A stretch of DNA of 63,447 nt, filler included, from Collodictyon triciliatum (lineage: Eukaryota), in assembly GCA_043381765.1 (NCBI GenBank). It is 41 parts of 41 records of this genome, joined end to end, with 100 filler letters (N's around TTAATTAATTAA, not from the genome) between each part and the next. Parts side by side here need not be neighbours in the genome. Positions count along the whole stretch, not along the records: positions 45,017 to 46,461 come from JBHJMP010011059.1; 40 more parts are not named here. One strand, 5' to 3'. The translations under genes and the position numbers were made by a program. Within the stretch, counting starts at the first letter, position 1. The number at the start of each line of letters is the position of its first letter. This document shows positions 45,017-46,040 of the stretch, one piece after another. The notes beneath the pieces are model-generated. The model searched no databases. It saw nothing but the letters and a program-made list of their open reading frames with translations, and was not told the DNA's origin.

Positions 45017-46040
45017 ATCATGTCTTCTTTGGTGTGCCGTGTAATCTAATTTCTTACCTGTCTCATCCACCATGTAAACCAAATTAAACTTGCCAACATT
45101 CTCTCAAACTACTATTTTTTTGTCGCTGATAAAGATAGCTGCTCTTTGGAAAGTTCATCTATATAAACATATTCTTGGGTTTTTTTGATCAAATTGGAAT
45201 TTTGAATTTGAAATACCTTTCTTTTCAAACAATAATGACACCGCCAAGCCGTCTGTTTGTATTGTGTATTTAAAAATTGTAATCTCTCTGATGAAAGACC
45301 CTCTTCTTCATTGCAAAGTTATCCTACAGTTTCTCTTTGTATCCTGATATATTCTCCATTAATAATGATTTTACAGATTATATCAATAAATCTATCAAAC
45401 ATGCAGTATCTAGAGTAATATGACATGGTATATTGTTAGTTCTTATAGAGATTGGTTGAAACTGTTTGGTTCCGATGTCCTCAAAATGCGATTCATGTAA
45501 ATCAGACAAGGAGTGTACTTATTTGGATTGACTTTGGCGTCATATTCGATATCATTTACAATATCGCTGGGTATGATATGATGCAAATGTATTTTGGCCC
45601 AATCCTTTTAATTTTTCAGGCATTTTGATTTTCTTGAAGATGGATTTTTTTAACTTTCGAAACTCTGCCTTTTTAATAGCATCCGCAATATTCTCATCTT
45701 AAGGAACTGTTTGATGTATAAAGCGCATAAGCCTCTTTACAAAATGCTCCTTAATGTTATAACGATAAGCTGTTAACACTTGCTTCGCCAAGTACAGTAA
45801 TACATGAGACAGTCCGACCAACGGAAAGCGTTCTTCTCAGGACAAAAGGAATCGAAAATCATAGAGATAAAACGGCATCATGTCTTTATTCATATCTGGA
45901 TGTTTTAAACTTGTGTGCCTATCTTGTGAATCTACTCCGACCGTCTTTAAAGTGTACAAAAAAACTTTATATCGATAGTTTGGGGCTGTTGTGATTTCAA
46001 TATGTAACATGTTACAAACAGATAAGTATCGATAATGTGA
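45017..46040 (-). pseudogene. Fanzor1 (eukaryotic TnpB-like RNA-guided endonuclease) remnant with stops and frameshifts; the contig ends just after RuvC-I
   Basis: Frameshift-corrected translation: IIDTYLFVTCYILK..TIDIKFF/LYTLKTVG..PFYLYDFRFLLS*..LSHVLLYLAKQVLTAYRYNIKEHFVKRLMRFI../DWAKIHLHHIIP..IEYDAKVNPNKYTPCLIYMNRIL/..KQFQPISIRTNNIPCHITLDTACLIDL../FKYTIQTDGLAVSLLF../FYIDELSKEQL/..KKIVV*ENVGKFNLVYMVDETGK/KLDYTAHQRR. Motif order matches Fanzor1 (FQP.s.R....P.yItlDT; I.TDG.svSllF; g.DpG remnant; YT..QRR). Confidence 0.85.

Follow-up and report, generated by a model that had tools for sequence, protein, structure and literature searches.

The window analysed here, a stretch of 63,447 nucleotides from Collodictyon triciliatum, raises the question whether a broken, AT-rich reading frame on one of its contigs descends from a Fanzor1 nuclease gene, whether any function is left in it, and whether it is a single remnant or one of many. 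Among the TnpB-like RuvC nucleases guided by omegaRNA, Fanzor1 forms the branch of eukaryotes and giant viruses, and transposons as well as giant viruses carry its genes. Solved Fanzor1 proteins have been reported as experimentally demonstrated omegaRNA-guided DNA endonucleases (PMC10432273). A sequence-only reading had proposed that the minus strand of 45017–46040 carries a dead copy of such a gene, and we therefore examined this proposal by homology searches, damage mapping and comparison with sequencing runs and viral relatives.

Identification of a Fanzor1 relic

The window is composed of 41 unrelated contigs of ~1,440–1,460 bases each, joined by N44-TTAATTAATTAA-N44 linkers. The reading frame lies on the contig at 45017–46461 (1,445 bases), and the adjoining contigs are not its genomic neighbours. 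Because the window joins separate contigs, this contig is the sole genomic context for the relic, and it is laid out as follows.

45017..46040, minus strand: Fanzor1 pseudogene fragment corresponding to residues ~50–391 of the reference protein P0006 (REC/WED part, RuvC-I and the next helix)
45248..45256, minus strand: T-D-G within the conserved block 'IQTDG(L/I)', whose T312, D313 and G314 do not vary among relatives
45092..45112, minus strand: ruined RuvC-I motif, V-V-stop-E-N-V-G versus (V)-G-V-D-P-G in relatives
46041..46380, no strand: unique 5' flank, GC-richer, in which neither a coding nor an RNA family was detected
46381..46461, no strand: A/T low-complexity run at the contig end, whose minus strand is poly-A with GAGAAT units

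No inverted repeats were found within the contig. Rfam gave no match in the whole window at gathering scores, nor any with E of 1 or less when the contig was searched. Elsewhere in the window, a carboxypeptidase exon was observed at 62442–62861.

As reference we took P0006, a 648-aa protein that is the closest intact relative. A tblastn search with P0006 against the whole window matched 46036..45017 on the minus strand with residues 50–391 of 648 (E = 1.7e-62), in three linked, colinear pieces across two reading frames; the next-best match elsewhere in the window had an E-value of 1.5. The identity between the window and P0006 was 58% over 322 columns, and individual pieces of the frame also matched P0006 in BLASTP (P0001, E = 2e-31; P0002, E = 3e-21). 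All seven peptides quoted in the sequence-only reading were present at their places on the minus strand, in two reading frames, and its T-D-G at 45256–45248 was confirmed.

We then compared the window pieces and P0006 with proteins of solved structure in PDB. Piece P0001 (45552–45917, with stops read as X) matched Guillardia theta Fanzor1 at E = 2.5e-4 and, in second place, Parasitella Fanzor1 at E = 0.18, and the window's direct likeness to the solved proteins is the N-I-K-E-H-F block. Piece P0002 gave chance matches only in PDB (TCA17, E = 1.3). P0006 itself was similar over nearly its full length to GtFz1 (9cer, E = 2.1e-28), PpFz1 (9cf0, E = 2.7e-24) and SpuFz1 (8gkh, E = 3.7e-23), and no other nuclease was matched. 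The direct PDB match of the window piece is thus modest, and the strong link to Fanzor1 passes through P0006. GtFz1, PpFz1 and SpuFz1 are distant, active enzymes with transposon contexts of their own. Fanzor2 and bacterial TnpB (IS200/IS605 and IS607) share the RuvC-nuclease superfamily and the guide-RNA logic, but the PDB chains matched by P0006 were Fanzor1 only; at an E-value limit of 1, neither Fanzor2 nor TnpB was among them.

Searches of four window pieces against Pfam, in a copy lacking PF26935, gave only sub-threshold chance matches (DUF5958, DUF1934 and others), and P0005 and P0006 likewise fell into no family of that Pfam-A copy. A search with P0002 for longer proteins yielded 33 relatives, most of them ~620 aa long, and 32 of the 33 carry PF26935 according to precomputed labels.

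Inactivation of the relic

The damage to the frame was mapped by frameshift-aware alignment to P0006, which placed five in-frame stops and about six frameshifts in a stretch with a GC content of 0.334, much as the sequence-only reading had described an AT-rich frame with several of each.

45837..45839, minus strand: TGA stop; Arg in P0006, P0055 and P0056
45699..45701, minus strand: TAA stop; Lys in the close relatives P0055 and P0056
45378..45380, minus strand: TAA stop; Thr in P0006 and P0005
45324..45326, minus strand: TAG stop; Trp in P0006 and P0005
45104..45106, minus strand: TGA stop; aligned with the Gly ahead of the RuvC-I Asp in relatives
45114..45970, minus strand: about six frameshifts, near 45970, 45605, 45472–45487, 45272, 45178 and 45114

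Four guide proteins were used, and the four shifts that more than one of them covered (near 45605, 45472–45487, 45272 and 45178/45114) were placed consistently. The shift near 45114 falls in an A7 homopolymer, and one extra frameshift at 46100 is doubtful.

The frame might instead be open under a non-standard genetic code or be interrupted by introns; many eukaryotic Fanzors are reported to have introns (PMC10530073), and some freshwater protists reassign stop codons. However, the six frame changes occur without inserted sequence, which excludes introns. All three stop codons are used, facing five different residues (Arg, Lys, Thr, Trp and Gly) and not one, so that no alternative genetic code rescues the frame, and other contigs of the window hold 480-aa frames open under the standard code. 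We therefore see practically no likelihood in this explanation. The earlier description of the frame as intronless stands, while its companion statement, that the genome is otherwise intron-rich, rests on unrelated contigs of the window.

The RuvC-I motif of the relic is ruined. D-P-G has been described as the RuvC-I signature of Fanzors (bioRxiv 10.1101/2023.08.09.552727), and D364-P365-G366-K367 are invariant in 9/9 full-length relatives, as are E555, C562, C565, C590 and D604; together they supply the RuvC triad and the zinc-finger residues that a Fanzor or TnpB should have. At D-P-G-K the window reads stop-E-N-V-G-K: the catalytic Asp position is Asn (45100–45098), the Gly position before it is the TGA at 45106–45104, and the Pro is also lost. 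The earlier judgement that the catalytic Asp had become Asn and that this copy was dead is thus upheld. Among the relatives, in the test for the TNB domain with its CxxC...CxxC zinc finger, PF07282 scored 26.1 bits against P0036, just under the cut-off of 26.3, and weakly (16.7 bits) against P0012. Being Fanzor1 by sequence and having lost the RuvC-I D-P-G, the stretch belongs to the family by descent and not by function; it is an ordinary representative of a known family, with no function of its own.

Truncation of the relic and its flank

Both ends of the gene are missing from the contig. At one side, the contig end at position 45017 interrupts the gene, as the sequence-only reading had noticed, and corresponds to residue 391 of the 648 in P0006. 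The contig end thus precedes RuvC-II/III, the zinc finger and any omegaRNA, and 1,024 bases of the element are present. The part encoding RuvC-II/III and the zinc finger was found on none of the other contigs of the window by tblastn with P0006.

At the other side, the match to the family N-terminal profile begins at profile position 53, corresponding to 46036, with nothing upstream. Across this junction the GC content rises from 0.33 in the relic to 0.48–0.49 in the flank at 46041–46380, and the CpG observed/expected ratio rises from 0.81 to 1.43, with values of 1.1–1.4 in the flank. The start of homology and of the profile match at 46036, together with the jump in composition, indicates that the first ~50 codons are absent. 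A weak alignment of residues 12–49 farther upstream was dropped, as the N-terminal profile had no match above 46036. None of the flank ORFs matched Pfam, and the flank matched nothing in Rfam.

Copies of the relic in sequencing runs

Four sequencing runs were compared with the contig at a likeness floor of 85%; no run contained more than 0.17 of the sampled words of the contig. Short (151-nt) contigs that match the window without a single difference came from three freshwater metagenome studies: run X1 at 45762–45912 and 46025–46175, run X3 at 45706–45853, and run X4 at 45202–45364. These identical contigs span two of the five stops (45837–45839 and 45324–45326), one or more of the frameshifts, including that at 45272, and also the 5' junction, which is bridged by the X1 contig at 46025–46175. 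The stop at 45837–45839 is present in both the X1 and the X3 contigs, and the X4 contig matches fully over the stop at 45324–45326. DNA of the host, a eukaryote, also appears in freshwater metagenomes.

These contigs bear on the idea that the organism has an intact gene, in which the stops and frameshifts arose only through faulty sequencing or assembly, an idea to which the high fragmentation of the assembly (1.4-kb contigs) and the frameshift in the A7 homopolymer near 45114 lend something. The same defects recur in identical contigs of three other studies, which argues that they are not assembly errors, unless the runs share source material. Moreover, the five stops made by substitution and the rewriting of the catalytic motif go beyond homopolymer slips, and the first ~50 codons are missing altogether. 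We consider it exceedingly improbable that such errors account for the damage.

Run X12 revealed a different kind of match. It contained 167 contigs that were 85–99% alike to the window, distributed as 11, 36, 74 and 46 over the likeness classes of 99% and above, 95–99%, 90–95% and below 90%. Their cover extends over 45017–46050 and is zero over 46051–46332, so that the multi-copy cover and the family homology both end at ~46040–46050. These 167 diverged contigs, covering the gene part only, indicate a multi-copy family with a repeat unit that stops at the same point as the homology, with the multiplicity taken from this one run, for which a DNA or RNA origin is only guessed. The earlier hint that other copies exist is thereby borne out, and the contig break inside the relic is probably due to its membership in this repeat family.

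The copies do not share all the damage. Sense codons were found in other copies at 4/5 stop positions: the stop at 45837–45839 is absent from 6/6 covering X12 contigs, four X12 contigs differ at the codon of 45324–45326, and eleven differ from the window at 45699–45701. At or close to 45272, 45482, 45186 and 45979, some X12 copies are longer or shorter than the window by a single base. At the catalytic motif, other copies among the sequencing-run contigs read G-V-D-A. Taken together, the homology, the lesions and the copies make it very probable, on sequence evidence, that 45017–46040 on the minus strand is a genuine, non-functional Fanzor1 relic and one of a diverged multi-copy repeat family.

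Relatives of the relic in giant viruses

An all-length HMMER search with P0001 over 1.84 billion representatives gave 28 hits. The two closest were fragments of 139 and 137 aa with 75% and 66% identity, encoded on contigs 714 and 626 bases long. At the N-terminus of P0055, the same region has been read in the wrong frame, which indicates that P0055 comes from a broken copy too. No intact protein closer than ~52–58% identity was found in the all-length search with P0001 or in the longer-protein search with P0002. A scan of metagenome contigs with P0006 returned one distant locus, L001, with 21% identity, which was left out of the later comparisons.

The home of the family was apparent from viral collections. 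In an IMG/VR scan (alignment A1), relatives were encoded by 380/530 candidate stretches. All 80 loci retained from the scan are from giant-virus bins or contigs, and they carry 82 ORFs, of which 81 are 550–650 aa long. In the ESM Atlas, PF26935 is DUF8286 and is found on 74–95% of the members of the clusters; the nearest clusters are 92–100% Viruses, with Nucleocytoviricota as the commonest phylum and the automatic name 'Transposase'. The giant-virus DUF8286 genes, present in IMG/VR GVMAG bins, carry the source annotation 'transposase' as well. These results agree with the likeness to giant-virus Fanzor1 that had been seen in the sequence and, judged by homology, the relic belongs to the DUF8286-type Fanzor1 subfamily (so named in Pfam 38), whose members are mostly from giant viruses (Nucleocytoviricota).

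The giant-virus genes share their domain order and conserved blocks with the window up to RuvC-I. The closest of them are 44–47% identical to P0006 and are intact ORFs of ~620 aa with the invariant D, E, D and Cys residues. In contrast, the window copy is decayed, 5'-truncated, cut by the contig end and embedded in non-viral-looking DNA. It also stands apart phylogenetically: in a quick maximum-likelihood tree of 34 rows, which took 15 of the 82 viral ORFs after removal of near-duplicates, the window, P0005 and P0006 formed their own clade (SH-aLRT 100) on a long stem of 0.93, beside the viral clades. As the tree is unrooted and came from a quick search, it carries no information on the direction of transfer.

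With relatives of this kind, the contig could be regarded as a contaminant that belongs to a giant virus or to some other organism: its nearest relatives are viral, both P0006 and P0056 originate from metagenome contigs, and the stretch itself is present in freshwater metagenomes. However, heavy pseudogenisation is unusual for a virus genome, the flank is viral neither in composition nor in gene content, and the contig ends in a low-complexity run of a kind seen at the ends of many other window contigs. Contamination is, in our assessment, very unlikely.

Features of the viral elements

The viral loci offer a view of the element ends that the contig lacks. Among viral copies, DNA similarity stops sharply ~80 nt past the stop codon, where the 3' tail closes with a conserved end motif followed by complete divergence; on the 5' side, it stops after 20–50 nt or ~400 nt. 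Inside the 3' end of the ORF, a 6-bp helix covaries at 6/6 pairs, with 92% of cells paired versus 49–76% when the partner is slid; 0/500 shuffles reached its score, although with related sequences this control exaggerates the significance. When 36 viral 3' ends were folded with RNAalifold, in a gappy alignment, one short helix only was recovered. By eye, a second terminal hairpin was seen in the viral 3' ends, with its columns out of register and uncounted.

In 29/80 viral loci, a 346-aa DDE_3 plus HTH_28 transposase is encoded within 3 kb, mostly upstream and on the opposite strand, and a small same-strand ORF without Pfam match lies directly upstream in 48/80. Four neighbour ORFs, either recurrent or adjacent, were scanned, and none of them is a serine-recombinase TnpA. 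In the Fanzor/TnpB scheme, the omegaRNA is described as made from the gene 3' end and the element right end (PMC10432273, PMC10530073). The right end, helix and transposase of the viral relatives fit this known scheme and the published giant-virus Fanzor1 elements.

The published case nearest in situation is that of Chlamydomonas reinhardtii, whose endogenous giant virus is reported to hold Fanzor1 elements with a Tc1/mariner-type transposase, as well as Fanzor-plus-right-end-guide variants, and whose host chromosome 17 holds a Fanzor fragment (bioRxiv 10.1101/2024.09.03.611062). The viral loci here likewise have a DDE_3 transposase and a sharp right end. The Chlamydomonas elements nevertheless belong to another host and another sequence family, and the two are likened by description and not by sequence comparison.

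This case also bears on the origin of the fragment, which could be part of one or more endogenised giant-virus insertions and not a Fanzor element amplified independently in the host. The family is overwhelmingly viral, and giant endogenous viruses are reported to carry many Fanzor1 elements and to leave chromosome fragments (bioRxiv 10.1101/2024.09.03.611062). On the other hand, the repeat stops at ~46050 in the 5' region of the gene and is followed by unique, GC-richer DNA without a viral gene; 0/561 ORFs neighbouring the viral relatives match the window contig; and the spread of 85–99% likeness over 167 contigs resembles a transposon family. We thus regard an endogenised-virus origin as unlikely. 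The endogenised-virus and transposon readings are not mutually exclusive, and a 1.4-kb contig cannot fully separate them.

Discussion

The stretch at 45017–46040 is best read as the decayed copy of a Fanzor1 element whose ancestor would have been mobile and would have worked as its relatives do. By analogy with those relatives, a structured RNA would have been transcribed from the gene 3' end plus ~80 nt and would have directed the nuclease to DNA adjoining the element's right end, and the unit may have been mobilised by a Tc1/mariner-type DDE transposase. The element may have entered the host genome by transposition or via a giant virus.

We put forward, as a tentative and rather doubtful extension, that a giant-virus-type (DUF8286) Fanzor1 crossed into a freshwater eukaryote and was amplified there to at least 100 diverged copies, some of which, outside this contig, may be intact and active with an omegaRNA of their own. 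If this were true, the window, P0005 and P0006 would represent a host-resident branch of an otherwise viral family, and would record the transfer of an RNA-guided nuclease from virus to host.

Published reports already describe Fanzor1 from both eukaryotes and giant viruses, along with its decay products and its sharing between viruses and hosts. A full-text literature search returned no experimental study of the DUF8286 viral-type subfamily. The relic thus provides a further example of a Fanzor1 that is shared by giant viruses and eukaryotes and decays after insertion, and reading of the raw sequence sufficed to recognise it despite its frameshifts. If intact copies exist, they would encode a compact (~620–650 aa) RNA-guided nuclease of a viral-type subfamily, and the copies would date the exchange between virus and host.

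Contig composition and other coding frames of the window

The window (positions 1-63447) was made up of 41 contigs, each of about 1.44-1.46 kb, with linkers of the form N44-TTAATTAATTAA-N44 between them. Contigs lying side by side in the window are not neighbours in the genome, and many of them end in microsatellite or low-complexity runs. The following coding features were noted on contigs of the window.

6224-7678, minus strand: contig open from end to end (484 aa), cysteine-rich 'C-x-x-C-P-x-G-T-[FW]' repeats
34189-35638, plus strand: whole-contig open frame (483 aa), tandem units of ~16 residues
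35739-37186, minus strand: contig open from end to end (482 aa), cysteine-rich 'C-x-x-C-P-x-G-T-[FW]' repeats
43472-44916, minus strand: run of TPR-like repeats, units 'N-R-x-D-K-A-L-E-Y-[YF]-x-K-S-L-E-I ... G-K-Y'
49135-49551, minus strand: conserved exon resembling part of phosphofructokinase-2/fructose-bisphosphatase
62442-62861, plus strand: conserved exon resembling the N-domain of cytosolic carboxypeptidase

The TPR-like run lies on the contig placed next to that of the decayed Fanzor1 gene fragment; it is a repeat-rich eukaryotic gene with no relation to the relic, and its units are separated by short, intron-like non-coding stretches. The repeats of the two cysteine-rich frames resemble each other, and these frames look like members of a large repeated surface-protein gene family. 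In the 483-aa frame, the tandem units are of the type 'Y-S-E-S-N-K-Y-G-N-T-D-T-Q-Q-K-T'. For the carboxypeptidase-like exon, PF18027 was found on 29-46% of cluster members in the ESM Atlas, where the cluster taxa were 'Eukaryota' only; the other conserved exon resembles a piece of a phosphofructokinase-2/fructose-bisphosphatase.

Genes adjacent to viral Fanzor1 relatives

The 80 kept IMG/VR loci with Fanzor1 relatives of the relic (L002-L081) were inspected for neighbouring genes, as exemplified by two loci.

L025:5738-6280, same strand as Fanzor1: small upstream ORF
L075:12667-13707: DDE_3 + HTH_28 transposase

Directly 5' of the Fanzor1 ORF, 48 of the 80 loci carried a small ORF on the same strand, separated from it by about 55-400 nt and showing no Pfam match. 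The C-terminal half of the L025 example is Lys/Glu-rich and coiled-coil-looking. In 29/80 loci, L075 and 28 others, an IS630/Tc1/mariner-type transposase (DDE_3 + HTH_28) was located no more than 3 kb from the Fanzor1 gene, in most cases upstream and on the opposite strand.

A covarying helix and a terminal motif at the 3' end of viral Fanzor1 genes

The viral loci were aligned around the Fanzor1 stop codon, from ~60 nt upstream to ~90 nt downstream of it. Locus L033 carries two GC-rich palindromic insertions (L033:3672-3911) in an otherwise AT-rich tail, one on either side of a conserved helix; these could represent short hairpins inserted into the putative guide-RNA region. This 6-bp helix, within the 3' end of the Fanzor1 ORF, covaries across the alignment, and a terminal motif ~80 nt past the stop codon is sharply conserved. 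A further hairpin directly 5' of the motif displayed apparent compensatory changes, as judged by eye only. Together, the covarying helix and the terminal motif likely represent the omegaRNA scaffold and the right end of the viral element.
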